In this document: positions 2,797 to 61,928 of the stretch, piece after piece
Layout of the letters: every line of letters begins with the position of its first letter
Numbering within the stretch: the stretch's first letter is position 1
Origin: Escherichia phage vB-EcoP-XT18
Sequence record: OR757434.1
Direction: 5' to 3' (one strand)
DNA length: 64,000 nucleotides
The notes under the pieces: model-generated
Databases searched by the model: none
Seen by the model: the letters and a program-made list of their open reading frames with translations, nothing else
Told to the model about the DNA's origin: nothing
Made by a program: the position numbers and the translations under genes

Positions 2797-2805
2797 GGAA
2801 TAAGA

Positions 2806-42474: not shown

Positions 42475-43514
42475 GCAGCAGTGAACAGAACACCGGAAGC
42501 ATACGGGTTGCGGTGACGCAGACCAACTTCCATCTCAATCATCCATTTTTCGTAAGAACCATCTTTAGCCAGTTCAGTACGTTTCGGAGCACGCAGAACC
42601 ATCTGAGTCCAGTCAGCGCTACGGAAGAAGTAAACTGCATCGGTAGGCATCCAACGGTTAACGATGATTTTGTAGCTCTGGCCCAGCGGGTCAGTGATGC
42701 TGTTAACTTCGTAAATGAACTGCTTGGTGTTTTCAAAGATACGCTTACGTGAACCCTGAGTATTTTCTTGCAGACCAGCGAAGATCTTAGCATGAGCCGG
42801 GTTAATCATGATGATATCTGCTTCAGAACCAGCGGTGTACAGTTGCAGAGTCATATCAAAGATATCTGCTTCATCAAAGCCGATGTTAGTAGCCGGGTTA
42901 GAAGCGTTCTGTGCAACTTTAACAGTGATTGCACCAGTATCCGGGTCAGCAGGACCATTCTTGGTCTTGTCAACAACGCCGCCAGCCAGACCACCGTGAG
43001 CACACAGGAACTGGAATGCACCAGTCTTACGAGCTGCATGGGTGTCGTTCTTGCCAATCTGATCTGGGTCAGCGGCAGAGTTAGTCAGGTATTGGTCAGC
43101 CAGAACGTCGGTACGAGCCTGACCAGACAGAAGGATTTTCTCGAGGTCACGCTTGATCTCTTTACCTTTCTTCTCCAGCTGGTACATCAGTTCGCGACCA
43201 CGACCGTAGTTAGCGGTGGTGTTAGCAGTGTCAGAAACACGAACAACCTTACGCAGAATCTGAGTAACGTTAGACTTGATAACAGTCGGTTTCATTTCGC
43301 CGTCTTCAGCACGAGAGCCTTCGACGTGTGCGTTATTACCATCAACGCTTGCCAGTGCATCGGTCTGCCAGCTAAAGATAGTCTGGTTGATAGACTCTTT
43401 ACCGGTCATGGATACGAACGGGGTATCCTGAGGGGACAGAACAGAAATCCAGTTAGCAAAAGAAAGTTTTTTACCATTCTGGTCATACGATACAAATAAA
43501 GTTGGATTAGCCAT
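42453..43514 (-). CDS. major capsid protein
   Basis: 353-aa ORF directly after the scaffold gene; gene order and size. Confidence 0.7.
   Translation of the reverse strand: MANPTLFVSYDQNGKKLSFANWISVLSPQDTPFVSMTGKESINQTIFSWQTDALASVDGNNAHVEGSRAEDGEMKPTVIKSNVTQILRKVVRVSDTANTTANYGRGRELMYQLEKKGKEIKRDLEKILLSGQARTDVLADQYLTNSAADPDQIGKNDTHAARKTGAFQFLCAHGGLAGGVVDKTKNGPADPDTGAITVKVAQNASNPATNIGFDEADIFDMTLQLYTAGSEADIIMINPAHAKIFAGLQENTQGSRKRIFENTKQFIYEVNSITDPLGQSYKIIVNRWMPTDAVYFFRSADWTQMVLRAPKRTELAKDGSYEKWMIEMEVGLRHRNPYASGVLFTAAGKAVAA
42468..42474 (-). promoter_or_regulatory. -1 ribosomal frameshift slippery heptamer G_GGA_AAG
   Basis: GGGAAAG lies 5 codons before the capsid stop; same heptamer as the lambda G/GT frameshift site. 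Confidence 0.55.
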
Positions 43515-43555: not shown

Positions 43556-44641
43556 TTAATCTACGAGGAATTTGAATGCGTCTTCGTGACTAACGCGACC
43601 CTCTGCGAATGCCTTGGCAACCTTAGCGTTGTCTGGCTTATTGGAAGTACGAGACTTTGCAGCATCAGACTTCACAACCTTGCGTGGAGCACCGGGACGT
43701 TTAATCTTAGCCATCACCTGCTGCTTACCTTTATCAAATTGGTATGCTTTATGGAGAGCTAGGAAAATAGACGGACGGTTTTCCTTCAATACTTCTTCTT
43801 CAGTAGCACCTAAGTCAATTGCATATTGCATTAAGTTTTGATATAAGTTTTCATCCCAATTTGGAATCTCACGTTTCAGAATATTAACGCACTCAATACT
43901 TTTGGCTTGGAAAGCTTCCTGTTCTTTAGCTGCTGCTTCCTGCTTAACACGCATCTGAGCCTGTTCAAGCTGGTTACGACGAGCTGTGTACTTCTCTAGG
44001 AAACGTTTGTTTTCAACATATGCTTGAGGATCTTCTACTGCAAGCTTGTCCCAATCAAATCCGTTGTAATCTTCAATTACTCGGTCTGCTTCTAAAGACG
44101 CTAATTCTAATACATCCTTCAAACCTACTACACGTTCCTCAAATGCTTCCATGTGACGCTGAAGAGTTGATTCTCGTTCGGTCATGTCAGCACCAGTAAG
44201 ATAGCCATTGGAGAGTTCTTCAATAGTCATCTCACGTCCATCAGGAAGGGTGATAACGGTTTCGTAGTCTACATCAAAGACCTCACCATCACCGTCAGCA
44301 GAATCATCTTCATACCCTGCATCGCTTGAGTCTTCCTCTTCTGCTTCAGTGTTTTCATCACCTTCATCAGAGTCATCCCCATCTTCTTCGACTTCGCCTT
44401 CCTCATCATGATCTTCCCAACCATCTTCATCTTCGAACTTAAGCTCATCGCTTTCACCGAGAAGGTCGGTATCAAAGTCGAAATTGTCACCGGTATCTTC
44501 CGGGAACTCATCGTCAATGTCCACTTCTGGTTCTTGTTCAGATTCTAATCGACCAAGTTCTTCTTTAAAAGAACCTTTCAGGTCATCCAGTTGGAGGAAA
44601 GATTTAAAATCGTTCGGGTCAATATAATTATCTTGTGGCAT
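43556..44641 (-). CDS. scaffolding protein
   Basis: highly acidic Asp/Glu-rich N-terminal half, helical C-terminus, between portal and capsid. Confidence 0.6.
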   Translation of the reverse strand: MPQDNYIDPNDFKSFLQLDDLKGSFKEELGRLESEQEPEVDIDDEFPEDTGDNFDFDTDLLGESDELKFEDEDGWEDHDEEGEVEEDGDDSDEGDENTEAEEEDSSDAGYEDDSADGDGEVFDVDYETVITLPDGREMTIEELSNGYLTGADMTERESTLQRHMEAFEERVVGLKDVLELASLEADRVIEDYNGFDWDKLAVEDPQAYVENKRFLEKYTARRNQLEQAQMRVKQEAAAKEQEAFQAKSIECVNILKREIPNWDENLYQNLMQYAIDLGATEEEVLKENRPSIFLALHKAYQFDKGKQQVMAKIKRPGAPRKVVKSDAAKSRTSNKPDNAKVAKAFAEGRVSHEDAFKFLVD

Positions 44642-44886: not shown

Positions 44887-47130
44887 TTACTTTTTACTTC
44901 CAAGACGTTTGCCTGGAATCCGTGAATCTTTGAGAGAAGCTTGTTGCTCTTTCTTAGTTACATTTGCTTCTTTCTTCTGGAGTTCCAAAGTTTTATCCTG
45001 AACACGAGATTGCTGAACAATCTTCTCTTGGTCAACCTGATGTTCCATAACCATCTGCAATTCTTTCAGTACAGACTCATACTGACGGACCTGCTGTTGC
45101 ATAAGAGCTAACTTGTGCTTAGCTTGTTCCAGAGTTGCATTGTTATCTTCTTTACGGTTTTCCAGAGTCATAGCATCTGCTGCATTTTCTTGCTTGAACT
45201 GCAACTCTTCCTGACGCAGACTTAATTCATCCGCAGCTTTCTGCTGTTCGAATGTAGTACGTTCACGCTGGTCGAATGCATCAGCAATCATCTTCTGAGA
45301 AGAAGCCTGTACGTTCTCAACCTGTGCTTTAGTCATCTCGAGCTGGAGGATTTCCATCGGAGACGGCTCAGGAGGCTGATACTGTTCCAGAGGCAGTAGG
45401 TATTTGTGAGTGTCTTTAATACCCATCAACTCAAAGATCTGTGCAGTCATGTAACGGTCTTGCTCCAAACCGAAGAGAGGTGCTAACTGTGCATCTGCTG
45501 CAATCAGCTGCTTCAAGCTAATCAGTTTCTGTGCACGTTCTGCTTTTTCATTAGGAGAGATAGCTACAACAACTTGAAGATTGTGACGAGCTGGTAATTG
45601 TTTCGGATTTACCTGAACCATACCACGAGGGGTTTGTACCTCAATAGGAACTTCACCATTTTCTCTGATAAGGCTATAAATACCACGCATCAATTCAACC
45701 ATACCATTGTGAGCAATGTTACGACATACCATACGGAGACGGTTCTGTGCAGCATTCATCATCAAGCCTACGGTTGCATAAGCGTTATCGTTCTTAAACA
45801 CATCAGGGTTGATACCCATGCCAAGTTTAGTTACACCAGTACGTGTCTCTTTAAGCTCCTCAGACATACCTAGGAGGCCATCAATACCTTGAGGTAGGTT
45901 ATGGTATGGGAACAGGTCGATAGCGTCCTGACGTTCCATTTCAACCACTCCACCGGGACGGTTATCAAGCAGAGAGCGACGATCGTATGCACCAACAAGA
46001 GCTTTGTATCGACCATAGTTAGCATTGTTGACGTTATCAATATAACCACGAACTAACGCGGTACGTAAATCCTGAATATCTTTCGTAATGTCATAGACTG
46101 ACTGACCATAGAAGGAACCCGGAATCGGATACGGACAGAAGGTTACAAACGGAATGTGAGTTACTTCTTCAGTGTGAAGGATATGCTCACCAGCTTGAAT
46201 AACCTGATAGAGTTTAGATTCTTTATTCTTATCTAGAACACCAGTACGGATGTAGTGCTCATAAACCCAAACCATAGTAGCGATATCTTCAGTATCTGTG
46301 CCAATGTCAGCATCAATGTCCTGACGCCAGTCAGTACGAGACCAAGCAACTGTAGATTGAGTGGTATCCATCGTGTCTGTCCAGTCATTAAATGCTTCAA
46401 TCTCATCTTTAGGGAAGCCCATAGCAACCAGATCTTCTTTAGAACGACGTACACGATGACAGAAATATTGTGCATCTGCAAAAGAGGTAGCATGTTCATC
46501 AACAAAGATTTGCTCTGAAGGAACATATTCAACTTTCACACGTTTAACAGTTTGTTCATAAGTAACTTTAACATCTACTGTACCGTCTTCATTTTCTTCA
46601 GTGAAGATTTCCAGATTCTTGAGTCCACCAGCTTCTAATCCCTGAACATATGCAGCCAACGCTTCCGGTGGTACACCTTCAGCTTCTTCAGTTTGAGTAG
46701 AAGTGTGCTCATCCCAATAATACTTGATAAAAGAGTTACGAGTAACTAGACATTCTTGTGCAGCAGAGGAGATAATATTGTATCCCGGATTGTCACGCAG
46801 AAGAATTTGGTTAACTAGTTTAGTTGCTACATCAGCAGCATCAGAGTCCTGTTGGTTATCAGCTACAAAAGTAACTGCTTCATCACCAGAACAGAATACG
46901 TTAATAATATCTTGCAATGTACCGTTAACGGATTCCCAAACAGTACGATCTACCCAACTAGAGCTGCCAGCAGTTACTGGTGCAGGTAAGTTACCATAGA
47001 AATATTCCCAAGCTTCACGAGCATAGCCCTTAACAGCCATGTCAACGTAACCTTGAGCGTAATTAAAACGACGTTGAAGGTCAACACGTAACTCGTCCAA
47101 CACCTCTTCACTATATTTTTGCTTAGCCAT
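44887..47130 (-). CDS. portal protein
   Basis: 747-aa ORF after the terminase; long C-terminal coiled coil as in the P22 portal barrel. Confidence 0.7.
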   Translation of the reverse strand: MAKQKYSEEVLDELRVDLQRRFNYAQGYVDMAVKGYAREAWEYFYGNLPAPVTAGSSSWVDRTVWESVNGTLQDIINVFCSGDEAVTFVADNQQDSDAADVATKLVNQILLRDNPGYNIISSAAQECLVTRNSFIKYYWDEHTSTQTEEAEGVPPEALAAYVQGLEAGGLKNLEIFTEENEDGTVDVKVTYEQTVKRVKVEYVPSEQIFVDEHATSFADAQYFCHRVRRSKEDLVAMGFPKDEIEAFNDWTDTMDTTQSTVAWSRTDWRQDIDADIGTDTEDIATMVWVYEHYIRTGVLDKNKESKLYQVIQAGEHILHTEEVTHIPFVTFCPYPIPGSFYGQSVYDITKDIQDLRTALVRGYIDNVNNANYGRYKALVGAYDRRSLLDNRPGGVVEMERQDAIDLFPYHNLPQGIDGLLGMSEELKETRTGVTKLGMGINPDVFKNDNAYATVGLMMNAAQNRLRMVCRNIAHNGMVELMRGIYSLIRENGEVPIEVQTPRGMVQVNPKQLPARHNLQVVVAISPNEKAERAQKLISLKQLIAADAQLAPLFGLEQDRYMTAQIFELMGIKDTHKYLLPLEQYQPPEPSPMEILQLEMTKAQVENVQASSQKMIADAFDQRERTTFEQQKAADELSLRQEELQFKQENAADAMTLENRKEDNNATLEQAKHKLALMQQQVRQYESVLKELQMVMEHQVDQEKIVQQSRVQDKTLELQKKEANVTKKEQQASLKDSRIPGKRLGSKK

Positions 47131-51009: not shown

Positions 51010-51450
51010 CAACCTTTCCCCGTGCCTACTCCCCGTAATTATTCCCCCGTGTATACTACCCAATACATTACCTACCCGTTTATTTAGTTCCCCTTTACTG
51101 AATGGATGAAAGGCTAGCACTGTATAGGCCAACTGATTAGTCTGCTAATAATGCCATTAATGATGGTCACCACTCCCCATAGTTTGAGTGTAAATAGTTT
51201 CAATAGTGATTGTTATGAGTGCAATAATGATGTATGTATTAATTAAGTGGATGATTGTGTTTCTTTTAATAATTTCTTTTAATTACTTTCTTTTTCAGCG
51301 TGCATGAGCGTAGCGAATGGTCTTTGATGTTTGAGTTATACAATTATTTAAGTGGTATATTATTACCGCACTATCTGGCAATGTTCCCCCGTGGTCTGTC
51401 CTGCGGTTGTATGTTCCCCGTCCTATAGAGATAGTAGAAATATTTTACCC
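51010..51450. repeat. dispersed YCCCCGT short repeats in an ORF-poor AT-rich region
   Basis: at least seven copies (51014, 51028, 51041, 51070, 51393, 51415, 51443). Confidence 0.45.
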
Positions 51451-51725
51451 GTAGGACTTGCTTTCTTTATTAAGAAGTAGTAAATTGTATTCATCGAAGC
51501 GAAGCAGTGATGCAAAGTAGCTAGATGGTAGTAAGCTCCATGAAGGATAATCGTCCTAAGTAGTGGAGAATGTTTAAAGATAAGGACTCTGCGATTGACT
51601 GGTGAAAGCTGGAACACTATCGAGTCAGTGAAGAGGCCAACTGAGCAATGGCCCTACGTATAAAAGAGAAATACGTGCTATCTTGTGAAACATGAAACCA
51701 AATACACATCAATGAGGATTCACAA

Positions 51726-52217
51726 ATGGCTAAGGTAATGCAGGTAGTTAATCTGGCAAGCTATGTACTGGTTGCCGCGATCGGTGTTAGTGCACTGGTA
51801 ACATCTCTTTCTGATAAGGCTATCGCTAGTCCAGCTCCTGCAACTAATGCCGCTGATGTTTTCGCTAGTTCCATTAATAAAGGTTGGATGATTTGCAACG
51901 GTGCGGATAGTGACGGCAATACCATCGCGTTAAAGATGAAATTTAGTAACGTAACAAATGAAGGCGTTCTCTTTCAATCTAAGACGTTGGACGGTCAGCC
52001 TAACAGTGATCTGGTACTCAAGCGTGCTGATAATGATGCGGATATGGTGACGTTCGGCACTGTACAACGTTATGAAGACGTTAAAGCTGTTACCAATCTT
52101 GTGAGCTACGGTCCGGTCAATGAGTCGATGATTGCTACCACTGTTTACAATAACGCTGATAATGCTGTTTACACTGTTCACGTTAATCTAGCCAACTGCA
52201 TCAAGGCCAGTAAATAA
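51726..52217 (+). CDS. secreted protein with signal peptide
   Basis: hydrophobic N-terminus followed by an A-x-A-like cleavage context. Confidence 0.45.
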   Translation: MAKVMQVVNLASYVLVAAIGVSALVTSLSDKAIASPAPATNAADVFASSINKGWMICNGADSDGNTIALKMKFSNVTNEGVLFQSKTLDGQPNSDLVLKRADNDADMVTFGTVQRYEDVKAVTNLVSYGPVNESMIATTVYNNADNAVYTVHVNLANCIKASK

Positions 52218-52243
52218 ATAACCTATTCTTGGGAGTGTAAAAC

Positions 52244-52495
52244 ATGGCTATCAAAGAAGTTAAATTATCTAGCGGGTTTTCTTGTTTTGTTTGTGATACT
52301 TTTATTGCGTTCAGCTTGAAAGAAGATGATGTGATAATCCCTGCCGTTGCTTTTTGTTCCATGAGTTTTAACGAGGCCAAAAAATGGCTTCAATTGGTGC
52401 GCATTGATATTAATCGCGATGACTTCCGATCAATCTATGTTGACGGTGATTTGTCGCTTTCTGGTCTTCTTGAGATTGATTTGCCTAAATGGTGA
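52244..52495 (+). CDS. hypothetical protein
   Basis: ORF. Confidence 0.35.
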   Translation: MAIKEVKLSSGFSCFVCDTFIAFSLKEDDVIIPAVAFCSMSFNEAKKWLQLVRIDINRDDFRSIYVDGDLSLSGLLEIDLPKW

Positions 52496-52506
52496 GGGAT
52501 TGATTC

Positions 52507-52716
52507 ATGGTCAATGGCGTTGTTGTTAATGATAGCGTAACTATCTTTGATAATGTTGTGTCAGTTGCAAGTAGTCGCGGTGAAAGTCGTGTACCGCTTG
52601 CCATATTGTGCAACCTTTCGGAATTTAGCGCACGAATTACGGTTGCTTATTTAGGCGGCACTTTATCCGGCCCTGAATATGTATCTATGCTCAAATACAA
52701 TAAGGAGTGGTCTTAA
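52507..52716 (+). CDS. hypothetical protein
   Basis: ORF. Confidence 0.35.
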   Translation: MVNGVVVNDSVTIFDNVVSVASSRGESRVPLAILCNLSEFSARITVAYLGGTLSGPEYVSMLKYNKEWS

Positions 52717-52979
52717 TGGCTAAAGAGTACAGCTTTACCATCCCGACTCATAACTATGGTGAGATTGATTTCTCATACACTGATAACTCTGACATGTGTT
52801 TAATCCTGTTTACTAGTGGCGATAAGACTAATGCGGTTGAATTTCCTGCCGTTGCTCTAATCATGGATGACGTTATAGCAGGTCAGTATCTGGCGCAACG
52901 TGGGATTCTCCTTTCTCTGGAAGAGATCGAACTACTTAGCGTAGCAGTTTTTGGTGAGGGTAACAGTGATGATTCATGA
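52707..52979 (+). CDS. hypothetical protein
   Basis: ORF. Confidence 0.35.
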   Translation: MVLMAKEYSFTIPTHNYGEIDFSYTDNSDMCLILFTSGDKTNAVEFPAVALIMDDVIAGQYLAQRGILLSLEEIELLSVAVFGEGNSDDS

Positions 52980-53159
52980 CTATTTTTGGCGGTGCTTATT
53001 CGTTGTTACAGTGGCGTCATTCGTCGCTGATATGCTTTATTCTTACATCCTTTGAGGTCCGGTTGTGTTATTTCTGTTTTTGTTTGTCGTTGGCTTCATT
53101 TCTTTAAACTATTTATTGATTGTTGCCGCTTTCGATATTCTTAAACTTATTATTGAAGG

Positions 53160-53534
53160 TTGATTACTATGTGGTTTATTAAATTCGTCGTTAAAACGGT
53201 TGTAGGCTTTTTTCTGGTTGTTCTTCTGTTGGGTGTCCTGCTATCAGCTATGGGTAGCGTTAAGGCTGCAACATTTTCCCCTGCTACGGTTGACGGCTTG
53301 CAATGTACCTACCTTGTAGAAAACTATTCGACTGGTAAAAAGTCACCTAAGGTTATTATTTTACATGTAAATGATTTCGAGCATGTACAATCATACGCTA
53401 AGACTATTCAGCTAGTGAATGAAACCACTGGCAAACAAATCACGGTCGATCACTTGATGCGCTCGTCGTTGACGCTCTTTGACGAGTCTATGAATGAAGT
53501 AGAATCCGGTAACGGTCAGTGTGTAAATCCTTAA
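53160..53534 (+). CDS. membrane-anchored or secreted protein
   Basis: N-terminal hydrophobic segment. Confidence 0.4.
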   Translation: MITMWFIKFVVKTVVGFFLVVLLLGVLLSAMGSVKAATFSPATVDGLQCTYLVENYSTGKKSPKVIILHVNDFEHVQSYAKTIQLVNETTGKQITVDHLMRSSLTLFDESMNEVESGNGQCVNP

Positions 53535-53613
53535 TCCTTGTGGGCCTGTTCTTTTTGACCATTGTCGGTGCAATGGGCCTTTTCTATGCTGTCATAATGT
53601 TAGGAGTTTAAAA

Positions 53614-53937
53614 ATGAAGAAGTTAATCGTTGGCTTGGCTGTTGGTTTGTCTTTGTTTGCTGGTAGTGCTAGCGCATACATGAAATGCGGAAGCATTGGA
53701 GTGGTCACAGCCTCTAATGGTGCTAAAAATCTCACCGCTTTAGGTAAGACTTGGTCCGCTACTGAGGTTATCACTTTAGAAAATGGCTTAAAGGCTGTAA
53801 TCTATGATAACCGGAAAGATGGTTCAATTCTTCGGGTTGTTCCTACGGAAGATGGGAAAACGGTTGCCATTATCTATTATCGAGATGCGGAATCTAATCT
53901 TAATGGTAATCCTGTGCTTTCCGGTATGTGCCGATAG
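53614..53937 (+). CDS. secreted protein with signal peptide
   Basis: MKKLIVGLAVGLSLFAGSASA signal peptide. Confidence 0.45.
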   Translation: MKKLIVGLAVGLSLFAGSASAYMKCGSIGVVTASNGAKNLTALGKTWSATEVITLENGLKAVIYDNRKDGSILRVVPTEDGKTVAIIYYRDAESNLNGNPVLSGMCR

Positions 53938-53965
53938 TCTATCTGATGCTCTAAATCCTTCCTAT

Positions 53966-53990
53966 AAGCCTCCTAGTGAGGCTTTTCTCA
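53966..53990 (+). terminator. rho-independent terminator
   Basis: AAGCCUC-CUAGU-GAGGCUU then UUCUCAUUU. Confidence 0.55.
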
Positions 53991-54149
53991 TTTCTAAGGT
54001 GATTGTATTCCTTACCCTCCTTTAGCTCATTGTGATGCGTCTGAGAGCGTCAAATAGTGCTTTACAAGCCTGTTTTAGTATGTTATTCGCGTGCGCGTTC
54101 CTTTACCTACTCCTCTACGAAAAAGTTTAAAATAATTTGCTTTGCCCTA

Positions 54150-54177
54150 TTGCATTACTCACTGGTTGGCGTATACT
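54150..54177 (+). promoter_or_regulatory. sigma70-type early promoter (TTGCAT-16-TATACT)
   Basis: -35 at 54150-54155, -10 at 54172-54177; boxA-like element about 50 nt downstream. Confidence 0.45.
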
Positions 54178-54224
54178 TCAATTCATCGGGTACGATGAAA
54201 AACATACAAGGCAAGAAATTGCCC

Positions 54225-54234
54225 CGCTCTTTAA
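54225..54234 (+). promoter_or_regulatory. boxA-like element CGCTCTTTAA
   Basis: identical to the core of rrn and lambdoid nut boxA. Confidence 0.5.
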
Positions 54235-54273
54235 AAATCAGGCTAGAAAGTGAAAAAATACTTGAAAAAGTAT

Positions 54274-54301
54274 TTGACAACTGGAAAGCCTAACCTATAA
54301 T
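54274..54301 (+). promoter_or_regulatory. strong sigma70-type early promoter (TTGACA-16-TATAAT)
   Basis: consensus -35 at 54274-54279 and -10 at 54296-54301; A/T-rich upstream region. Confidence 0.7.
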
Positions 54302-54333
54302 GAGCATAAGTCAGCGATGACGTGAAACATCCC

Positions 54334-54343
54334 CGCTCTTTAA
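54334..54343 (+). promoter_or_regulatory. boxA-like element CGCTCTTTAA
   Basis: about 35 nt downstream of the promoter. Confidence 0.5.
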
Positions 54344-54420
54344 AAACTTATCATCTTGCCCTTTCGCATAGATTCAAGCGAGATAAGGGAAAAGAATAAA
54401 AGAAGATGATAAAAAAGAGG

Positions 54421-54449
54421 TTGCAAACGTGGTTAAGGTAGTTCATACT
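54421..54449 (+). promoter_or_regulatory. sigma70-type promoter candidate (TTGCAA-17-CATACT)
   Basis: -35 and -10 hexamers with 17-nt spacer. Confidence 0.35.
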
Positions 54450-54610
54450 AACCACAAGTTAACAAAACAACGTTAACTAGTTCCCAAGTCAACGTATCGC
54501 GGGAAAGGTGGCACATAGTGCAGCGAGTAGTTCGGGAGTAGGCGCCCCGTTAATGAATAAGTAAGCCTTTAATGATGCAGTGATTAGCAGACACTATAAA
54601 AGGCTAAAAA

Positions 54611-54620
54611 CGCTCTTTAA
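54611..54620 (+). promoter_or_regulatory. boxA-like element CGCTCTTTAA (full context ACGCTCTTTAACAA)
   Basis: closest of the four copies to the rrn boxA sequence. Confidence 0.55.
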
Positions 54621-54726
54621 CAATATGGATCATAAGTTTAAGCCTTATCGCTTAATCTTCAATCAAATAAAGCTGGTTGATATATCCTCCCAATAGCGGG
54701 AACGACGAAAAAGATTAAAAAAGCGG

Positions 54727-54755
54727 TTGACAGCAAAAACATCATGGTCCATAAT
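54727..54755 (+). promoter_or_regulatory. strong sigma70-type early promoter (TTGACA-17-CATAAT)
   Basis: -35 at 54727-54732 and -10 at 54750-54755; A-rich upstream region. Confidence 0.65.
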
Positions 54756-54847
54756 GAGCGTACTCACTAGGCAAATCACCGCTTCAGTGAAAAGCGAAAC
54801 AACGGCTTACAGTTGCGTAGCGTGAGAAAGCACGCTGACAGATTTAC

Positions 54848-54857
54848 CGCTCTTTAA
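54848..54857 (+). promoter_or_regulatory. boxA-like element CGCTCTTTAA
   Basis: about 95 nt downstream of the promoter. Confidence 0.5.
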
Positions 54858-55530
54858 TAATTTAAACGTCCCCATATATCGGTTAAATATGCTGGAAGAT
54901 AATAACCATCGGAAAGCATACCAGATAAAACGGCGTAAAACTCCCTAAACCATCAGGGTAAACAGTTTTACAATCCCTTAACTGGAAACGTCACCACTGA
55001 TAAGCGGATTCATTGAGTACACGCAACGGTTTAAGCTAATCGCCCACGGTTAAGGGTAGCGGCGGCCATCGCTAACACGGTGCTACAGTGAAATAAGTTA
55101 ATCAGGGCAGACAAGTCCGACGAAATAACGCTCAATTGAGAGCGGCGGGGGATGGTTAAAGGGTAGCAAATTGCTATTTAACAATAAGGTTTAGTGTGAA
55201 CGTTTACGATGCGAACGGCTTGAGATTCGTCTTATGATGAAAGTACATAGTCGGTTTATGTAGTAAACTCGCCGAAAGATATAAAACGCCGGAATAATAG
55301 GCGGTTAGTGACTCTTTCGCAATAGTATCCCATAGTGGGCGATGACTAGCGAAAGAGAGCTGATATAAAAGGATAGGCGGGAGCGAAAGCAAAGTAAACG
55401 ATATTGCCGACGGTTACATCAATGTAACTAATTAGAGTCGGACGCACTGCCTTATTGTGGTGATTGATCATCGCTATCAGGTCGGCTTGGTTTATAGCGA
55501 CTAATTAAAGATACCAGTTGAAACACCACG

Positions 55531-55578
55531 GATAAGGGGGCGGCAAGGTTAACTCCTGACAAGACCGCCCCCCTTATC
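55531..55578 (+). other. long GC-rich hairpin (13-14 bp stem, 21-nt loop) in the early leader, possible RNA processing site
   Basis: GATAAGGGGGCGG ... CCGCCCCCCTTATC inverted repeat. Confidence 0.4.
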
Positions 55579-55679
55579 AATAATTACTTAACAATGAGTG
55601 ATTATCGATAAGTCAATGGCGACTTAAAAAGCTCATAGAGAGCGGGGCATAGTGCCCTTACAATTGAAAGGTGAATATC

Positions 55680-56579
55680 ATGGCTAAAATTTTTAATCTG
55701 GTTAAAGAATCTGGTTTTAACGCACTGGCTAACAACATTCGCAGCAATAACGCGGCGATCAAACAAGATGTTTCTAATTTTCTGTTAGGGCACTTGCAGC
55801 ACTTCCGTAGCAATGGTAAAAAGCTGGACGTATTGCAGGCGGCGGTCGATTTTCTGTTAACCGAACGTTTCCGCGATATGGATGTGATTGCCACTGCAAT
55901 TACTTTCCTGACTCCGATCAAGTTTAACACCGATGCGGCAAATGGGCGTAAGAAGTGGATTAATCTGGAAGGTGAAGCGAAAGCGAAAGAAGATGCGAAA
56001 GAAGCGCAAATTAAGGCCAAAATGGAACAAAACCGAGCTCGCTGGTCAAATGCTTTCGAAAATTTTGCCCTCGGTCGTGAAATTGAAGTCGATAATCCTA
56101 ACTTTTACAAAGGTTGCAATGACAACGTGGCGGCCCACCTTCAAATCCCGGCGAAAAATAAGGAAGATTTTAACCAAGATATTTACGCCTTAGTTGAACG
56201 CTTGAATGCAATCCGTATTGAAGCCAAATTGCTGGCTGATGAGCGCAACGGCGCTACCAGTGATAATACTATTGCCTTGAGTGAAGAAGTGGGGAAAGTT
56301 AAAAAGTCCTTTGATTCACTCATCAAGAAAGTCACGGCTTCAACGGTAGCGATCTCTGACGACTATCTGATGAACGCATCAAGCAAGGAGCTGGAATCAC
56401 TTGATTCATATGCCGATGAAATGGAATCAACCATCGCAAAAATGCAGGAAAAATTGGATAATCTGCGCGGTCGTATCTCTTCAACAGTTGCAATCCGTAC
56501 CGAACAAGCTGCGAAAGAAGAAGAGGAAGAAGTATTGCGTAAAGCGGCTGAGATTATGGCGGCACGTCAGGCGGCATAA
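55680..56579 (+). CDS. first early protein, helical, unknown function
   Basis: ATG at 55680 with AAAGG RBS; E. coli-like codon usage; terminator follows. Confidence 0.5.
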   Translation: MAKIFNLVKESGFNALANNIRSNNAAIKQDVSNFLLGHLQHFRSNGKKLDVLQAAVDFLLTERFRDMDVIATAITFLTPIKFNTDAANGRKKWINLEGEAKAKEDAKEAQIKAKMEQNRARWSNAFENFALGREIEVDNPNFYKGCNDNVAAHLQIPAKNKEDFNQDIYALVERLNAIRIEAKLLADERNGATSDNTIALSEEVGKVKKSFDSLIKKVTASTVAISDDYLMNASSKELESLDSYADEMESTIAKMQEKLDNLRGRISSTVAIRTEQAAKEEEEEVLRKAAEIMAARQAA

Positions 56580-56601
56580 GTAAGACAATCTAAATAAACA
56601 T

Positions 56602-56636
56602 AAGGCGCTATCTTAACGGGTAGCGCCTTTTCTTTT
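56602..56636 (+). terminator. rho-independent terminator
   Basis: 9-bp stem AAGGCGCUA/UAGCGCCUU then UUCUUUUAU. Confidence 0.6.
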
Positions 56637-56681
56637 ATCAGTGCATTGATTCAGTGCATTAATCAAAGAATCTAATCAAAG

Positions 56682-56909
56682 GTGATGATCATGTTAATTA
56701 CGCATACCACGATTTATAGGAATCTTGTCAACGGTCAACATTACCGCCTATCTAAAAAGTATGGCGTTGAATGTAAATGTGTTATTACCGGTGAATGGTA
56801 TCCGTCGCCAATGAAGATTGAAACGTTGGAACGTGACGCTGTTAGTTATGTTATCACGCAAGAAACAACGTTAGGCCGTATCTTAAGAAAGCTGGGATTA
56901 AGAAAATGA
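56682..56909 (+). CDS. hypothetical early protein
   Basis: ORF. Confidence 0.4.
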   Translation: MMIMLITHTTIYRNLVNGQHYRLSKKYGVECKCVITGEWYPSPMKIETLERDAVSYVITQETTLGRILRKLGLRK

Positions 56910-57130
56910 TATTCAGTAGCAATTTTGGCAAGTGTCCTATTTGTGAGAAACATCGCAGCACGGGAAATCATCGAAAATGTAGTAAGATATTACAGCGTCA
57001 ACGTGATAACAATCATTGGGATACTGTACACACTAATCAGCGTAAAGAAGAAGTTAGAAAAATGGCTGTTAAAGCATCATTTGCTCAATCCACCCGTATT
57101 GAACACATTCAAAGGTATCAAGCATTATGA
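56906..57130 (+). CDS. small Cys/His-rich early protein
   Basis: CPICEKH...H..C; overlapping frame 56925-57137 is less likely. Confidence 0.35.
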   Translation: MIFSSNFGKCPICEKHRSTGNHRKCSKILQRQRDNNHWDTVHTNQRKEEVRKMAVKASFAQSTRIEHIQRYQAL

Positions 57131-57336
57131 TCACTAACATTTCAGAATTTAAGAAAGCACCTTCCCGCTTGTTAGGCCGTCGTGTAGTATATCTTTATAG
57201 CAACAAAGGTAAATGTACAACCGGAAGAATTACAACGGTGAGTAGTGCCAATAAGAAACTACTAAAATTATGTGTAGCTATGGATGACGGTACAATCCTG
57301 CTACGCAGTTGGAAGTCATTTAGTTTACTCGATTAA
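57127..57336 (+). CDS. hypothetical early protein
   Basis: ORF. Confidence 0.4.
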   Translation: MITNISEFKKAPSRLLGRRVVYLYSNKGKCTTGRITTVSSANKKLLKLCVAMDDGTILLRSWKSFSLLD

Positions 57337-57405
57337 GTTATTTGTTCAAGCCTATCGACTTGATGGGCTTGCCCGATATAACTTATCACTGAAAGGAATA
57401 AGATT

Positions 57406-57849
57406 GTGGCTAAATCTAAAATCAGCATGAAGGGCGGGCGTTGTTTTTCTATCTCTGAACTGGAGAAAGAGAAGCCGAAGGCAACCAATCACGTCAGTAA
57501 GCGCAGTTTAAAACGTCGTGCTGCAAAGGCTGAAGCTGAATCTCATATCCCTTCTAGTGTGGCAAAACGTGTAGGCCATCGCGTCCATCGTGCTGATGCG
57601 TTATTGTTAGCCGATCACAAACGTTCTTTATTACAGAGCGGGGGAGCTAAAACAGAAGAGGAGAAGAAGTTAGAAATCTTCTGTAATGGTCGCACCCGTG
57701 GTAAACAGAAATTTAAAGGTAGCACGAAAGACCCGCAGGCTTTTCCTAAGACAAGTCAGTGTGCACCTGATGTATTCTACGCAGATAGCAAACACAAATG
57801 GGGAGTTGAAAAATACATTGACCCCATCAAAGAGGCAAGGGTTAAGTAG
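57406..57849 (+). CDS. basic early protein
   Basis: Lys/Arg-rich ORF with RBS. Confidence 0.45.
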   Translation: MAKSKISMKGGRCFSISELEKEKPKATNHVSKRSLKRRAAKAEAESHIPSSVAKRVGHRVHRADALLLADHKRSLLQSGGAKTEEEKKLEIFCNGRTRGKQKFKGSTKDPQAFPKTSQCAPDVFYADSKHKWGVEKYIDPIKEARVK

Positions 57850-57929
57850 TAGGAATATAGTCCCCTCTTTTAGTACTATGACGCTCTTTCTATCGCGTCG
57901 TGCCTTCTCCCCATTTGAAGCTTCCGCAT

Positions 57930-57955
57930 AGCCGCCTTTGAGCGGCTTTTGTCGT
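57930..57955 (+). terminator. rho-independent terminator
   Basis: AGCCGC-CUUUGA-GCGGCU then UUUGUCG. Confidence 0.5.
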
Positions 57956-58014
57956 TGCCGTAAGCGCATTTACGAGTGTTTTTACTGCAATAGTCATGTA
58001 TTGCTTTCAGGTTT

Positions 58015-58042
58015 GCCCCGGCTACGGCTGGGGCTTTTTTAT
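58015..58042 (+). terminator. strong rho-independent terminator
   Basis: 8-bp stem GCCCCGGC/GCUGGGGC then UUUUUUA. Confidence 0.7.
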
Positions 58043-58089
58043 GCCCGTAAAACAGGAGGTAGCAAGTTCTGATAACAACGGCCCAGCTA

Positions 58090-58479
58090 ATGTTGACATT
58101 GACTATTTATTATGAGGCAGGGGACCAGCCAACCGCATGTAAAGCTATGGTTGCGGATACCGTGATAAATAGAATGGCTCAACGAAAACTGACCGCTGAA
58201 CAGGTGATAAGACAAAAGAACCAGTTTGAGTGGATTCCGGTACTATTAAAACAGGAGAAACCTTATAAACGTTATGTAAAGCTGGTTCGTGATAAAAATC
58301 CGATGACTAGGCAAACCATTGGAGAAAGCGAGCGACTTGCTAAACGTGCCCTTAAGAAGAATTATGTTCCTCTGTATAGTGGGACTTACTTTCAGAGTAA
58401 GAGCGAAGGGGTGCCAAAATGGTATGCCAATCCTATGTATTGTGGTGATTTAGTGTTCGATAATAGCTCTAGGGAATAA
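58090..58479 (+). CDS. SleB/CwlJ-like cell-wall hydrolase domain protein
   Basis: YYEAGDQPTACKAMVADTVINRM ... QFEW resembles the Hydrolase_2 signature. Confidence 0.45.
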   Translation: MLTLTIYYEAGDQPTACKAMVADTVINRMAQRKLTAEQVIRQKNQFEWIPVLLKQEKPYKRYVKLVRDKNPMTRQTIGESERLAKRALKKNYVPLYSGTYFQSKSEGVPKWYANPMYCGDLVFDNSSRE

Positions 58480-58678
58480 TCACTAGTGCCAGATTTGACA
58501 AACTAAATTCCTTTATAAACCAACCACTTAGTAAATTTATTGAAAAAGATGGTAGTATTCTGGGACTATGGGTAATGCTCTGTATATAGACCCTTTGAAA
58601 ATTTCTTAGAAAATAAGTTTACTAAATATAACTTACTTAAATAATATTACTTTTAATCTCTGATAAAGGGTAAATAAT

Positions 58679-58975
58679 ATGACTTTAGAAGTATATAAAT
58701 TCCTTTTTGTAAGCTGTTTAACTATCAGCGTTATAGGATTTATTGTTCTCAGAAACAAAGCAGCAAGCTGGGAGAGAATGTATAGATCTCTAGTCCGAGT
58801 GGATGAGATGTATAATGAGAAAGTTAAAGCAACGCTTAATGATCTTATTATGCAAGTAGAGGACAGAAACAAGCGTCTTCAGAATCTCAACCATGAAGTA
58901 TTGCGCCTTGCTCGTGCTAATGAAGACTTGCGAGTAGCTATTGCTAAACAGCAGGAGATTAACAGTGAAAGTTAA
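58679..58975 (+). CDS. membrane-anchored coiled-coil protein
   Basis: N-terminal TMD then heptad-rich segment. Confidence 0.4.
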   Translation: MTLEVYKFLFVSCLTISVIGFIVLRNKAASWERMYRSLVRVDEMYNEKVKATLNDLIMQVEDRNKRLQNLNHEVLRLARANEDLRVAIAKQQEINSES

Positions 58976-59198
58976 TATTAAGCCTGATCATACTACACTT
59001 CGTTTAAATAACATGAGGCCGGGTGCTCTGTTTCATTTTAAAGGTTCTCTCTATATCAGAACCGGATTAACAACTGACTATCACGTCAATTGTGTTAACG
59101 TGGTTTCTGGAGAGCTTATTGTTATCAGCAAAAACGAAGTCTGCCAAGTGCGCAATGATCTCCACATAACTAACATCGAGGCTAAAGATGAAGATTGA
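58941..59198 (+). CDS. small early protein, paralog family B
   Basis: shares L..G(D/S)(V/L)F core with 59188, 59446, 60419 and 62457 ORFs. Confidence 0.4.
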   Translation: MLNSRRLTVKVNIKPDHTTLRLNNMRPGALFHFKGSLYIRTGLTTDYHVNCVNVVSGELIVISKNEVCQVRNDLHITNIEAKDED

Positions 59199-59445
59199 TC
59201 TTGAATTAAAAGACCCAGACCTTACAGTGGGTGATTTAAAGCTTGGAGATGTGTTCCAAGTTAAAGCTACACGCGTCGATCATTATTTGGTTGTTAGTTT
59301 ATTCACTCCACACGTAACCGAGTCGAACAGGAAAGATTCTGGAACAGTTGTGCTTGGTTTAAGAACTAATCAGGTTATGAAGCTCAATTCAAAACTTCCT
59401 GTAATCCTTATCCCAGATGCAGTAATTACTAATAAAGGTAAGTGA
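59188..59445 (+). CDS. small early protein, paralog family B
   Basis: DLKLGDVFQVK. Confidence 0.45.
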   Translation: MKIDLELKDPDLTVGDLKLGDVFQVKATRVDHYLVVSLFTPHVTESNRKDSGTVVLGLRTNQVMKLNSKLPVILIPDAVITNKGK

Positions 59446-59664
59446 ATGGAAATTAAAGTGGTTGATTATCCTAAATATGCAAATGCAGAAGACGTTAAGG
59501 GTGGTGATGTTTTCTCTTACGATAAACGTTTCTGGCTGATGCTAGAAGATAAAACCCTTGATGGTTTGTGTAAGGCTGCTAACTTGAGCAGTGGTTATGT
59601 TGAAGTCTTCGGTCTATCAACCACTATTATGCCACGTCCTGATCTGTGTTTATCCCAAAAGTAA
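59446..59664 (+). CDS. small early protein, paralog family B
   Basis: DVKGGDVFSYD. Confidence 0.45.
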   Translation: MEIKVVDYPKYANAEDVKGGDVFSYDKRFWLMLEDKTLDGLCKAANLSSGYVEVFGLSTTIMPRPDLCLSQK

Positions 59665-60171
59665 CACCGACTTATAGCCCTTGTGTTTACCAGAGGGCTA
59701 TGTGAGGGTGTTCCTCATTAACTTATTAATTCAGGCATATGCCACACCGCTAGGGAGAGCTTGCTCAAACATCCGGTGCTAGACTAAAACCTGTTAATTT
59801 TCGAAAGACTTTCCGGTATGTAGGGGTACGTATTGGTTTGGGATTCAGGAGACTTCCTAGGGGTAGGGAGTCTTCACCAGTTGGAATAAGAGATAGCTCT
59901 AGAACCTGAACTCTTAGGCAGAGAAGGTCGGCAATGAGTACGCGGTCAGGATTAGTCTACTGACTAGGGCTATCCCTTATATCAACTGGCAATAATGCCT
60001 CCACTAACAAAGAGAGATAGGTATGAAAGTATCAACCAAACGTATGAACCGCCCTGAGCGTATGGATGCAGTAGCTAACGGTGCTCTGAAACTGGAAGGC
60101 TTCTGGGTTCATGCAATGTCGGCTATTCGTAACAAGCAAGGTAATTGGACATATAACAGTTAATAAATAAA

Positions 60172-60200
60172 AGGCTGCCTTCGGGCGGCCTTTGTTGTTT
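60172..60200 (+). terminator. rho-independent terminator
   Basis: AGGCUGCC-UUCG-GGCGGCCU then UUGUUGUUUU. Confidence 0.65.
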
Positions 60201-60245
60201 TAATTAAGGGACAACTCTTACTTAAACTAACAAGAGGAAGCTCAA

Positions 60246-60419
60246 ATGTCTAAGCAAACAATCAAGAATACACAAGCTGGTTACTCTTATGTTAACTCTC
60301 CTTGCTGTGGTGCTCGTGTTAATCTGGTTAAGGAAGAGGTTCGTATCGTTCAGCGTGGCGCTACTGTTGTTCGTTCATGCTGTGTCTGTGGTAATGATAT
60401 TTTTATCAAAGGTAAAGTA
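60246..60419 (+). CDS. small zinc-ribbon protein (57 aa, below the track cutoff)
   Basis: CCGA...CCVCG; RBS present. Confidence 0.35.
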
Positions 60420-60643
60420 TGATTATCGTCCACTCTGAACCTAAAGATAATACTTTTGGTAGTCTACGTAATGGTGATGTATTCTCTCTAGAAATAGACG
60501 GGGATACAAAACCTCCTTTATACATGAAGGTTATGCACAGACATGCTATCTGTATAAAGAATCCTGAAACAAGATTCACCTTTGATAGAACTTGCCCTGT
60601 CAAATACTATCAAGCTACCCTAAATGTTAGGAGAGTAGGATGA
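60419..60643 (+). CDS. small early protein, paralog family B
   Basis: SLRNGDVFSLE. Confidence 0.45.
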   Translation: MIIVHSEPKDNTFGSLRNGDVFSLEIDGDTKPPLYMKVMHRHAICIKNPETRFTFDRTCPVKYYQATLNVRRVG

Positions 60644-60891
60644 AAAACTTCCAAGCTGCACCAATAACTAAAGCGATCGCAGTTAGTGATGTGATGATGA
60701 CTGTTCCTCTGAACACTCGTTACATTGCAATTGACAAGATGGGTTATGTATGGGCTTGGAAGATTAAGCCTAGCTATAACGCATTGTTTGACGAGTTTGT
60801 TTGTACTGGTACTTACAGTCCTACATTCTTGGGTTTATTTGGAGAGTTTGAAGGTCAGTATAAAATCATTACTCTCCCTGCTTGTGTTTGA
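60640..60891 (+). CDS. hypothetical protein
   Basis: ORF. Confidence 0.4.
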   Translation: MKNFQAAPITKAIAVSDVMMTVPLNTRYIAIDKMGYVWAWKIKPSYNALFDEFVCTGTYSPTFLGLFGEFEGQYKIITLPACV

Positions 60892-60896
60892 GGTTC

Positions 60897-61132
60897 TGGT
60901 GAAGACTAAAGAGGTTAAATATTTTGGTGAAGTTATTAAAATAGGTAACTCTATAAGATATTTAGCAACTGATAGCAACGGCGAAGTGTATGGGTTTACT
61001 CATAAGCCAGAAATTCGTGGGTATGCTTGGGCACTCCCTTATGGAACTCCATTCGAGACTGGAGGGGCTGTTTATCTTAATGATAATGGACCTCTGTTTG
61101 GGTGGAAAACATCTCTCGTTGAGGTGGTATAA
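60897..61132 (+). CDS. hypothetical protein
   Basis: likely GTG start within track ORF 60725-61132. Confidence 0.35.
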
Positions 61133-61307
61133 TTATGTTCAAGTGGTTTAAATATCTCTTCCATCTCCATGAGTGGGAGACAATCAAAGCGGTTAGTTTA
61201 AATACATACAATGAGTTTGGTAAACTGGAAAGTACCGGAACTCGTTACATACTTCGATGTAAAACATGTGGTCATATCACTAAGCGGGATATGATCTAAG
61301 AGGTGTT

Positions 61308-61517
61308 ATGTTCTTTCGTAAGAAAAAGCCCGAAGATTCTGGATGTAAACATGAGTGGGTGATCACTGAAAACTTACATATCACTCACGCTAAAGACACT
61401 CCAGTTGAAGCGAAAGAGTCTCGTGTATCTCGTGTCTGTAAACGCTGTTTGAAAATAGAACAGCATAAAGTCCCCGGTCATATAGGTCATGATGTGGCCT
61501 TGCGTATCTTCAGTTAA
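61308..61517 (+). CDS. hypothetical protein
   Basis: ORF. Confidence 0.4.
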   Translation: MFFRKKKPEDSGCKHEWVITENLHITHAKDTPVEAKESRVSRVCKRCLKIEQHKVPGHIGHDVALRIFS

Positions 61518-61535
61518 ACAAATTCAGAGGTTAAT

Positions 61536-61844
61536 GTGAAACAAAAGCATTTTATCATCTCAACCTTACTACTAATGACAACCATTGGTATCATCTCTGT
61601 TAATAGTGCAGAGATTGGGGTTAAGTATCAGAGTGTTCAGCAATGCACTCTTAAAGAGCATAGCTTAACTGGTATCAAAGAATCTCATGGTATGGTAAGA
61701 GATGGGCTTCTGTTTGTAGAAACAACTTCTGGTAATCGTGTCATGGCTACTGATGGCAAAGAAACAAAGTATGCCTACTTCCCTGATACAACAGGCTACT
61801 ACACTTTTGAAGAGAAGGATTGTAAGAAGTCTTTCTCTTTATAA
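61536..61844 (+). CDS. secreted or membrane-anchored protein
   Basis: N-terminal hydrophobic signal-like segment. Confidence 0.45.
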   Translation: MKQKHFIISTLLLMTTIGIISVNSAEIGVKYQSVQQCTLKEHSLTGIKESHGMVRDGLLFVETTSGNRVMATDGKETKYAYFPDTTGYYTFEEKDCKKSFSL

Positions 61845-61853
61845 ATAAATCAA

Positions 61854-61928
61854 GTCCCTATAGTTAAAAGGATATAACAGATTTCTTCTAAAAATCCATT
61901 CTAGGTTCGAGTCCTAGTGGGGACGCCA
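61854..61928 (+). tRNA. tRNA-Arg (anticodon UCU) with encoded CCA
   Basis: hand-folded cloverleaf: 7-bp acceptor stem with one G-U, D arm GTTA/TAAC, anticodon stem GATTT/AAATC with loop CTTCTAA, T arm CTAGG-TTCGAGT-CCTAG, discriminator G. Confidence 0.8.

Follow-up and report, generated by a model that had tools for sequence, protein, structure and literature searches.

A single early gene of kuraviruses with host-like codon usage behind a structured leader carrying rrn-type boxA sequences

The early region of Escherichia phage vB-EcoP-XT18 (sequence record OR757434.1) contains one gene whose codon usage comes close to that of an average gene of its host. We analysed a stretch of 64,000 nucleotides (nt) of this genome, hereafter the window, and within it the interval 55680-58479, which an initial annotation had singled out as a block of early genes with a common, E. 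coli-like codon style. Per-gene and pooled tests alike reduce this block to a single member, the open reading frame (ORF) at 55680-56579. We consider it probable, if well short of certain, that the bias of this sole host-codon gene is adaptive and long maintained, reflecting translational selection on an immediate-early and probably abundant protein, and that it is not the trace of a recent transfer.

55680..56579, plus strand: codon-usage outlier gene encoding 299 amino acids (aa), homologue of SU10 gp120 and SU7 gp105, phrog_13018

The flagged interval is 99.9% identical to Escherichia phage vB-EcoP-XT32, a Kuravirus; its identity to some 75 further Kuravirus genomes, SU10, ES17 and Bas90 among them, is 93-94%. 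Kuraviruses are phiEco32-like C3 podophages of about 77 kb. The annotations of XT32, Bas90, SU10 and SU7 place six ORFs in the interval and call each of them hypothetical. In the window, 107 ORFs were called by strand block and their codons counted one ORF at a time; the addition of 22 XT32 genes from the 12.6 kb absent from the window gave 129 genome ORFs. Two E. coli K-12 codon tables were built from annotated genes, a highly expressed one (30 ribosomal-protein, elongation-factor and rpoA genes) and an average one (39 ordinary genes). Each ORF was then scored by the per-codon log-likelihood ratio of the E. coli average table against the phage's own table, computed in leave-one-out fashion.

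By this score, ORF 55680-56579 is the clearest fit to the host table (log-likelihood ratio +0.148, z=10.4, rank 1 of 107), and it keeps rank 1 among the 129 genome ORFs (z=9.7). Its synonymous usage departs from that of the rest of the genome (G=157, 41 degrees of freedom, p=2e-15), its codon adaptation index (CAI) is 0.50 against a mean of 0.37, and under the highly expressed E. coli table its likelihood is about second in the window. The heavy use of GCG, CCG, CGC and CTG that had been attributed to all ORFs between 55680 and 58480 is found in this gene (GCG 16/42, CGC 6/16, CTG 11/25, and CCG 2/3, against 5%, 9%, 16%, and 15% in the remaining window ORFs pooled; Fisher p=2e-10, 0.002, 0.001, and 0.06, respectively) and not in the other five, 56691-58479, which are ordinary when pooled (GCG 2/32, p=0.67; CTG 6/38, p=1). 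The companion statement, that the rest of the phage prefers GCT, CGT and TTA, is borne out (57%, 41%, and 23%), with CTT equal to TTA at 23%. The codons favored in the outlier gene are CTG, CGY, ACC, GAA, AAA and GCG, and its usage for Ala, Arg, Leu, Thr, Glu and Lys is close to the E. coli average table. Since the A-ending GAA (0.86) and AAA (0.67) are raised alongside GCG, CTG and CGC, as they are in the E. coli tables, the bias is codon specific and no plain shift of third-position GC content; the bulk GC of the flagged interval (0.42-0.44) is unremarkable. Five host-rare codons, AGA, AGG, ATA, CTA and GGA, are all absent from the gene, where about 14.9 would be expected (P=3e-8). AGA and AGG together (AGR) make up 29-46% of the Arg codons in other genome blocks versus 0/16 here.

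The bias is not a peculiarity of this phage. Seven distant loci were fetched (L005, L006, and L018-L022) whose orthologues are 46-70% identical to the 299-aa protein, and twelve loci in total were compared for the position of gene, leader and boxA. The codon bias recurs in eleven orthologues, down to 46% identity, and each of the seven distant ones is the host-like outlier of its own locus (z=5.4-6.8), with 0-1 AGR, no ATA, and 0-3 GGA codons. At fourfold sites of conserved residues, the window gene and its L005 orthologue (49% identical) match in 34% of cases against 28% expected for independent draws, which is near expectation and indicates that synonymous sites are saturated. The codon used at conserved Ala, Leu and Arg positions varies among orthologues while the usage profile is unchanged, and synonymous codon entropy is flat along the gene (0.85-1.1 bits), except that the first 30 codons are lower (0.58 versus about 0.9 bits). 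A profile that is kept while single codons turn over is the signature of selection on codon choice, and neither of unameliorated foreign DNA nor of a conserved nucleic acid element within the ORF. The gene is present and syntenic in at least 75 Kuravirus records and in all distant loci fetched; in the latter, the order is the same in seven of seven (a long gene-free stretch, the orthologue, several small ORFs, and a 140-153-aa ORF), and a Hydrolase_2 protein lies further downstream in six of the seven.

Upstream of the gene, the spacer 53938-55679 (1.74 kb) has no annotated gene in XT32 or Bas90, and after position 54293 it contains no plus-strand ORF of at least 40 aa. ORF 55680-56579 is the first ORF behind the strongest host-type (sigma-70) promoters of the window, and it is bracketed by the following signals.

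53966..53984, plus strand: terminator-like hairpin that closes the right-end cluster 51726-53937 at the start of the gene-free spacer, annotated in SU10 and SU7
54274..54301, plus strand: sigma-70 promoter-like site TTGACA-16-TATAAT, 12/12, A-rich upstream, predicted start at about 54308, conserved in relatives
54727..54755, plus strand: sigma-70 promoter-like site TTGACA-17-CATAAT, 11/12, A-rich upstream, predicted start at about 54762
54762..55679, plus strand: untranslated structured leader in front of the outlier gene, spanning about 918 nt between the 54727 promoter and the ATG
55666-55673, plus strand: Shine-Dalgarno sequence AAAGGTGA at the 3' end of the leader
56602..56639, plus strand: intrinsic terminator directly 3' of the outlier gene, with a 12-bp stem AAGGCGCTA..TAGCGCCTT followed by a T-run

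In kuraviruses, SU7 and PAS59 the 54727 promoter lies about 950 nt ahead of the ATG; the distance grows to about 1010 nt in L006 and about 1040 nt in L005. For SU10, three sigma-70 promoters have been described in the spacer between genes 120 and 121, and the genes were classed as early (PMC4281155). The annotation of SU7 has a terminator right behind gp105, at the same place as the 56602 terminator; with a terminator right after the ORF and promoters upstream, the gene forms a one-ORF unit. A third promoter-like site (55556-55584, 10/12) falls within a conserved covarying hairpin and has no promoter counterpart in relatives, and is probably a false positive. A 78-aa ORF at 54057-54293 (plus strand), unannotated in XT32 and Bas90, has a 66-aa ORF annotated at a similar place in SU7 and PAS59; in the window, where it overlaps the first boxA described below and ends at the 54274 promoter, it is probably noncoding. 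The proposal that the genes of the interval are expressed before the phage takes over is plausible for 55680-56579 only, given its sigma-70 promoters, its terminator, and its avoidance of AGA and AGG; the neighboring early genes are phage typical. These sequence signals suggest that expression of the gene is both high and very early.

The leader has an ordinary GC content (0.41) and is predicted to be extensively folded, with a minimum free energy z-score of -4.2 for the window's own sequence. RNAalifold, run with six sequences on its last 240 nt, predicts 73 pairs. Double compensatory changes support 22 of these, where the controls show 3-5, and pairing holds in 97% of cells as opposed to 38-43% with slid partners. 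When eleven diverse sequences are used, double changes are seen at 37 of 50 pairs, pairing stands at 94% against 35-42% with slid partners, and the covariation score is 0.60 against 0.08-0.10. The preceding 455-nt block gives 127 pairs, 48 of them with double changes. All these pairs were counted on the same alignments that were used for structure prediction, and since the sequences are related, the shuffle control is generous and the slid-partner control is the stronger one. A predicted long-range helix pairs the Shine-Dalgarno region with a segment 225 nt upstream; it is invariant, and hence outside the reach of covariation, and would sequester the Shine-Dalgarno sequence. No match at E<=1 was obtained in 53500-56000 with Rfam 15 (4,227 families, including GOLLD, ROOL, riboswitches, and leaders), and four related loci yielded only tRNAs at gathering scores. 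The leader may represent a large phage RNA of a new kind, or else a 5' untranslated region (UTR) of elaborate structure.

Elsewhere in the genome, codon choice follows the expected abundance of the product, and the host-rare AGA has a tRNA of its own.

61854..61928, plus strand: phage tRNA-Arg gene, anticodon TCT (decodes AGA)

The major capsid gene (42453-43514, minus strand; Pfam SU10_MCP) is the second strongest codon outlier and the sole comparable one in the window, shifted to the highly expressed E. coli pattern (CAI 0.75, CTG 18/22, CCG 8/13, GCG 3/38, and AGR 0/16). Rare codons are also avoided in the 361-aa ORF 43556-44641 beside it and in the portal gene 44887-47130 (AGR 1/39). Since genes of presumably abundant products shun rare codons, translational selection operates in this genome. 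In the model of Bailly-Bechet and Rocha, phage tRNAs reportedly compensate for codons that are rare in the host. The present genome resembles that picture in that it over-uses AGA and carries the matching tRNA, while genes of abundant products such as the capsid shun host-rare codons. The genome-wide link between AGA and tRNA-Arg(UCU) has already been published for this phage group (PMC9965538); that analysis was genome-wide, and a single early gene going the opposite way is unmentioned in the papers searched. Rare-codon avoidance or host-like usage was seen in three further cases: ORF 15935-16681 (without Pfam match) has none of the five host-rare codons, the XT32 gene at record positions 69209-70015 is free of AGA and AGG, and a TerB-domain ORF is a second host-like outlier in two distant loci (L005 19045-19473, z=5.7, CTG 11/18; L006 15894-16322, z=4.9, CTG 15/16).

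We envisage a self-contained immediate-early unit that opens with sigma-70 promoters and rrn-type boxA elements, one of the latter accompanied by a boxB-like hairpin. The structured leader of about 0.9 kb would come next, then the ORF behind its good Shine-Dalgarno sequence, and last an intrinsic terminator. With the host's translation apparatus and tRNA pool unmodified, synthesis of the protein would be rapid and probably abundant; synonymous sites would turn over freely, but only among codons that E. coli decodes well, and the rest of the genome would use AT-rich codons with the help of the phage tRNA-Arg(UCU). Translational selection would then be the cause of the bias. Several observations sit poorly with this explanation. 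The profile of the gene is nearer to the E. coli genome average than to the highly expressed set, which sets it apart from translational selection as described in phages; GCG accounts for 38% in both the gene and the average table, as opposed to 22% in ribosomal-protein and elongation-factor genes, and the NAY two-fold codons favor T (GAT 0.79, AAT 0.56, and TTT 0.69), the reverse of highly expressed E. coli genes. Adjoining early genes, which are translated before much phage tRNA can exist, use AGA/AGG normally (29%). Finally, the GCG excess is strong in Kuravirus proper and weak in some relatives (L018, 4/39), and since it fades in this way, part of the codon signal is not accounted for by translation. 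The constant core of the bias is the shunning of host-rare codons plus CTG and CGY; the GCG excess does not belong to it.

A non-translational constraint on synonymous sites is an unlikely alternative to translational selection. It could take the form of RNA structure or protein-binding motifs running from the leader into the ORF, of mRNA stability (e.g., the avoidance of AU-rich RNase E sites), or of a mutational bias from heavy transcription by the host RNA polymerase. The gene is fused to a highly structured leader, its GCG excess and T-ending NAY codons misfit classical E. coli translational optimization, and its first 30 codons are the less variable ones. However, synonymous variability past codon 30 is even and high, so that no fixed sequence or helix is conserved there, and conserved Ala, Leu and Arg residues are encoded differently among orthologues under one and the same profile. 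A regional mutational effect is opposed by the ordinary GC content of the leader and by the phage-typical ORFs right behind the terminator. Moreover, the conserved core of the bias is the avoidance of precisely those codons that are rare in the host.

Timing might also be invoked on its own, AGA and AGG being avoided solely because translation precedes the appearance of tRNA-Arg(UCU), whatever the expression level. This would fit the AGR counts of 0/16 in the window gene and 0-1 in every orthologue, the location of the tRNA gene 5 kb downstream and past a terminator, and the AGR count of 0/14 in the right-end genes 51726-53937 of the window. As a full explanation, we find it distinctly unlikely. 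In Bas90 (3/13) and SU10 (2/9) the right-end cluster does contain AGR codons, counts on which the idea of an AGA/AGG-free first 5 kb was dropped; early ORFs at 56691-61844, also upstream of the tRNA gene, have 29-40% AGR; late virion genes shun AGR too (capsid and portal, as given above); and the bias spans many amino acids beyond Arg. Given phage-typical neighboring early genes and a late capsid gene that shuns rare codons, timing alone is insufficient, and expression level is the better correlate, with early timing as an added factor.

Recent horizontal acquisition, which the initial annotation had offered for the interval in the form of a mosaic module, is very improbable. The donor of the gene alone, or of all of 55680-58479, would have been E. 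coli itself, a plasmid, or a temperate phage of host-like composition, with too little time since then for drift to the composition of the phage. Such a transfer would suit the near-identity to the E. coli average (Ala 0.21/0.19/0.38/0.21 versus 0.22/0.22/0.38/0.19; CGC 0.38 versus 0.36) and the mosaic gene content of the early region, where several BLAST matches are split by insertions, but the outlier gene has no match in 5,426 complete E. coli genomes (blastn, word 11), it occupies the same position behind the same leader in twelve of twelve loci, its bias is still there at 46-50% identity, although with fourfold sites saturated amelioration ought to have run its course, and none of the remaining five ORFs of the putative module is atypical. 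Among 5.8 billion clusters there are 42 protein relatives; each source name given is that of a phage, and the long contigs with a relative are of kuravirus size, about 77-96 kb. A profile search of 1.8 billion cluster representatives returned 12 clusters, from phage-type contigs only, and a search of IMG/VR with the protein profile returned close relatives only. The gene content of the early region is mosaic although its codon usage is not.

The spacer in front of the gene carries a second conserved feature. Repeats of the CCGCTCTTTAAAAA type, picked out there by a repeat finder, match the boxA of E. coli rrn operons, for which the functional gammaproteobacterial consensus is GYTCTTTAANA (Baniulyte et al., PMC5725501).

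54226..54237, plus strand: boxA 1, GCTCTTTAAAAA, perfect consensus, 14/14 versus the boxA of the E. coli rrnB 16S-23S spacer
54335..54346, plus strand: boxA 2, GCTCTTTAAAAA, about 27 nt past the predicted start of the 54274 promoter
54612..54623, plus strand: boxA 3, GCTCTTTAACAA, exact rrn boxA
54819..54836, plus strand: boxB-like hairpin AGCGTG-AGAAAG-CACGCT, 12 nt 5' of boxA 4, as in the rrn P2 leader
54849..54860, plus strand: boxA 4, GCTCTTTAATAA, about 87 nt past the predicted start of the 54727 promoter

These are four perfect copies of the consensus within 634 nt on the plus strand; the whole window has 6 against 0.53 expected, and none of 100 shuffles reaches 6. When GCTCTTTAACAA is searched with at most one mismatch, five plus-strand copies are found at 54226-55184, and the whole window again has 6, against 0.6 expected (0/100 shuffles reach 6). 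The fifth site (55173-55184, GCTATTTAACAA) has its mismatch at a critical C and its 5' half in a predicted hairpin, and is probably no BoxA. The likeness extends into the flanks: boxA 2 with its flank matches the rrnB leader GCTCTTTAACAATTTATCA at 17/19 positions, and boxA 3 with its flank matches the rrnB spacer GCTCTTTAAAAATCTGGATCA at 19/21. Five of the six pairs of the boxB-like hairpin have compensatory changes (seven sequences). The position of boxA 4, -830 to -936 from the ATG, is kept in twelve of twelve loci; relatives have 3-5 same-strand copies each and none on the opposite strand of the spacer. The boxA copies are interleaved with the sigma-70 promoters, and the order promoter then boxA is conserved; boxA 1 lies upstream of the 54274 promoter, so this phage may or may not transcribe it. 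A GU-rich boxC could not be made out convincingly in the sequence. More distant relatives (L005 6955-10000, L006 6983-10000, L018, and L019) have about 3 kb of gene-free sequence ahead of the orthologue, roughly twice the length in the window, and boxA and leader fill only its last 1.4 kb or so; the first 1.5 kb or so may contain the genome terminus. In the window, 590 intergenic bp at 51133-51725 separate the divergent late (minus) and right-end early (plus) blocks. Comparison with SU10 and phiEco32 would place the physical genome end, together with the 193-bp terminal repeat, in this region, and the window is accordingly expected to read across joined ends.

Judging from their sequences, the boxA elements may recruit NusB/NusE/SuhB of the host. 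If they act as boxA does on rRNA, CRISPR arrays and suhB, this complex would keep Rho away from the long untranslated leader, and it might also help the RNA to fold. A bolder interpretation, which we regard as possible if doubtful, is that the locus is a cassette imitating a host rRNA operon: promoters with A-rich tracts together with boxB/boxA would load NusB/NusE/SuhB onto RNA polymerase, the RNA of about 0.9 kb, of a class absent from Rfam, would be functional in itself, the outlier gene would form the translated end of the cassette, and the promoter-boxA module would be a general, overlooked device of virulent enterobacterial phages. In that case the RNA might act as a decoy that titrates Nus factors, RNases or ribosomal proteins, counteract host defenses, or control translation of the ORF through its fold. 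The grounds for calling the module general are that a T5-like Proteus phage has it too, in its pre-early terminal repeat (see below). The rRNA-like leader, with boxA and a large conserved RNA, is unreported so far: a search of open-access literature found no paper combining phiEco32, Kuravirus or T5 pre-early genes with boxA.

Several known systems share parts of this architecture. In E. coli rrn leaders (P2-boxB-boxA-boxC, with NusB/NusE/NusA/NusG/SuhB), as in the kuravirus spacer, consensus boxA lies on the transcribed strand, here with rrnB-like flanks and in one copy behind a covarying hairpin, and the RNA downstream is long, untranslated, and structured, like pre-rRNA. The kuravirus boxA elements differ in being phage borne and multicopy, in being followed by an mRNA instead of rRNA, and in the lack of a clear boxC. 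The boxA of lambda is a weaker variant, CGCTCTTA, which requires boxB and the phage N protein. As lambda does at its nut sites (for background on these and on N antitermination, see PMC2800207), the kuravirus would use boxA RNA and host Nus factors in the control of early transcription; the kuravirus copies differ in being of the full rrn type. The BoxA elements of CRISPR arrays (PMC7665894) and of the suhB 5' UTR (PMC5725501) likewise stand at the start of a long untranslated transcript, and by analogy the role would be to stop premature Rho-dependent termination; those elements are chromosomal and single copy, whereas the kuravirus ones belong to a virulent phage, are multicopy, and precede a structured RNA and an ORF. 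With GOLLD and ROOL the leader has in common that it is a phage-encoded RNA of several hundred nt with extensive covariation; it differs in having no Rfam match and in being contiguous with an ORF, and may thus be a simple 5' UTR.

In the early region of T7, gene 0.3 (ocr), whose product is the earliest protein to appear, stands behind three strong host promoters, A1-A3. The kuravirus locus is similar in that several consensus sigma-70 promoters are stacked before the first early ORF, near the genome end, and in that this ORF encodes a small-to-medium, nonenzymatic protein. It differs in that the promoters are spread over about 1.4 kb and interleaved with boxA, and in the structured leader of about 0.9 kb before the ORF. 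The 299-aa protein, moreover, has no similarity to Ocr and, with an isoelectric point (pI) of 5.7, is no obvious DNA mimic.

For parallels outside kuraviruses, we took 120 viral contigs among the matches listed that share one 16-mer with rrn boxA and looked for same-strand clustering. Several of these 120 contigs have 2-4 same-strand consensus boxA copies within 1.5 kb, and among them are the Proteus phages PM135 and Stubb (T5-like, Demerecviridae). In Stubb (L144, NC_048086.1), positions 1648-3030 of the terminal repeat contain three consensus promoters (2179, 2886, and 2973; two of them 12/12), each followed after about 45-50 nt by a boxA. These promoter-boxA sites lie upstream of the A2 and A1 pre-early genes, and a divergent gene has a further boxA in front of it, on the other strand. 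The promoter-boxA combination may be widespread among virulent enterobacterial phages. Two other contigs, L053 and L035, were grouped with the pre-early arrangement of Stubb. L112 has four same-strand boxA copies in 600 nt (10579-11200) and no match in the phage collection, and a recurrent boxA pair 487 nt apart was seen in at least about a dozen contigs (L030, L045, L054, L065, and similar ones).

The five ORFs that follow the terminator within the flagged interval are listed below.

56691-56909, 56906-57130, and 57127-57336, plus strand: three small basic ORFs with PHROG matches and phage-typical codons
57406..57849, plus strand: basic protein, 147 aa, pI 10.1, with a marginal host-codon shift (z=3.2)
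58090..58479, plus strand: SleB/CwlJ-type hydrolase-domain protein, 129 aa, Pfam Hydrolase_2 (PF07486), z=1.1

The three small ORFs have codon z values of 2.1, 0.1, and 0.8, in that order, against a genome-wide standard deviation of 2.1. The protein features noted earlier from the sequence hold up. The basic protein is indeed strongly basic, and residues 13-114 of ORF 58090-58479 match Hydrolase_2 above the gathering cut-off (E=8e-8, 33.3 bits versus 27), which makes it a candidate hydrolase-domain protein. Bas90 (L002 6339-7392) and several other kuraviruses have two more ORFs between the basic-protein and Hydrolase_2 genes, one of about 0.9 kb annotated as "tail protein" and one small; the corresponding site in the window is 57849-58090.

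The first early protein, described as helical and of about 300 aa, is a mildly acidic protein of 299 aa that is predicted to be mostly helical. The AlphaFold2 model (19-sequence alignment; predicted local distance difference test score, 73) has a helical N-terminal part, a few short strands, and a long C-terminal helix. Pfam returned only sub-threshold coiled-coil noise for this protein and NCBIfam nothing, whereas a PDB profile search gave only designed coiled coils (E>0.2); with the AlphaFold2 model, Foldseek found nothing in the PDB (best E=0.6), and in BFVD only the protein's own family. As an ORFan kept throughout the group, the gp120-type protein is probably the most important immediate-early product of these phages and a candidate for host takeover or anti-defense. 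The BASEL study described these phages as resisting restriction systems without a known inhibitor (PMC11990801); to tie the gp120-type protein to this resistance is speculation.

These results indicate that, in a virulent phage, one early gene can be kept by selection on host-type codons over very long periods, even as the remainder of the genome moves towards AT-rich codons supported by a phage tRNA. Taken alone, the codon result is a tidy example of a known force acting on one early gene, and it is the rRNA-operon-like leader that makes the locus more interesting. With the leader, a large covarying RNA joins the few structured RNAs known to be encoded by phages. Should the boxA elements prove functional, the host's rRNA antitermination would be put to direct use by a lytic phage, without an N-like adaptor (no search for an N-like protein was made), and the roles of Nus factors outside rRNA synthesis would become testable in a simple infection system.

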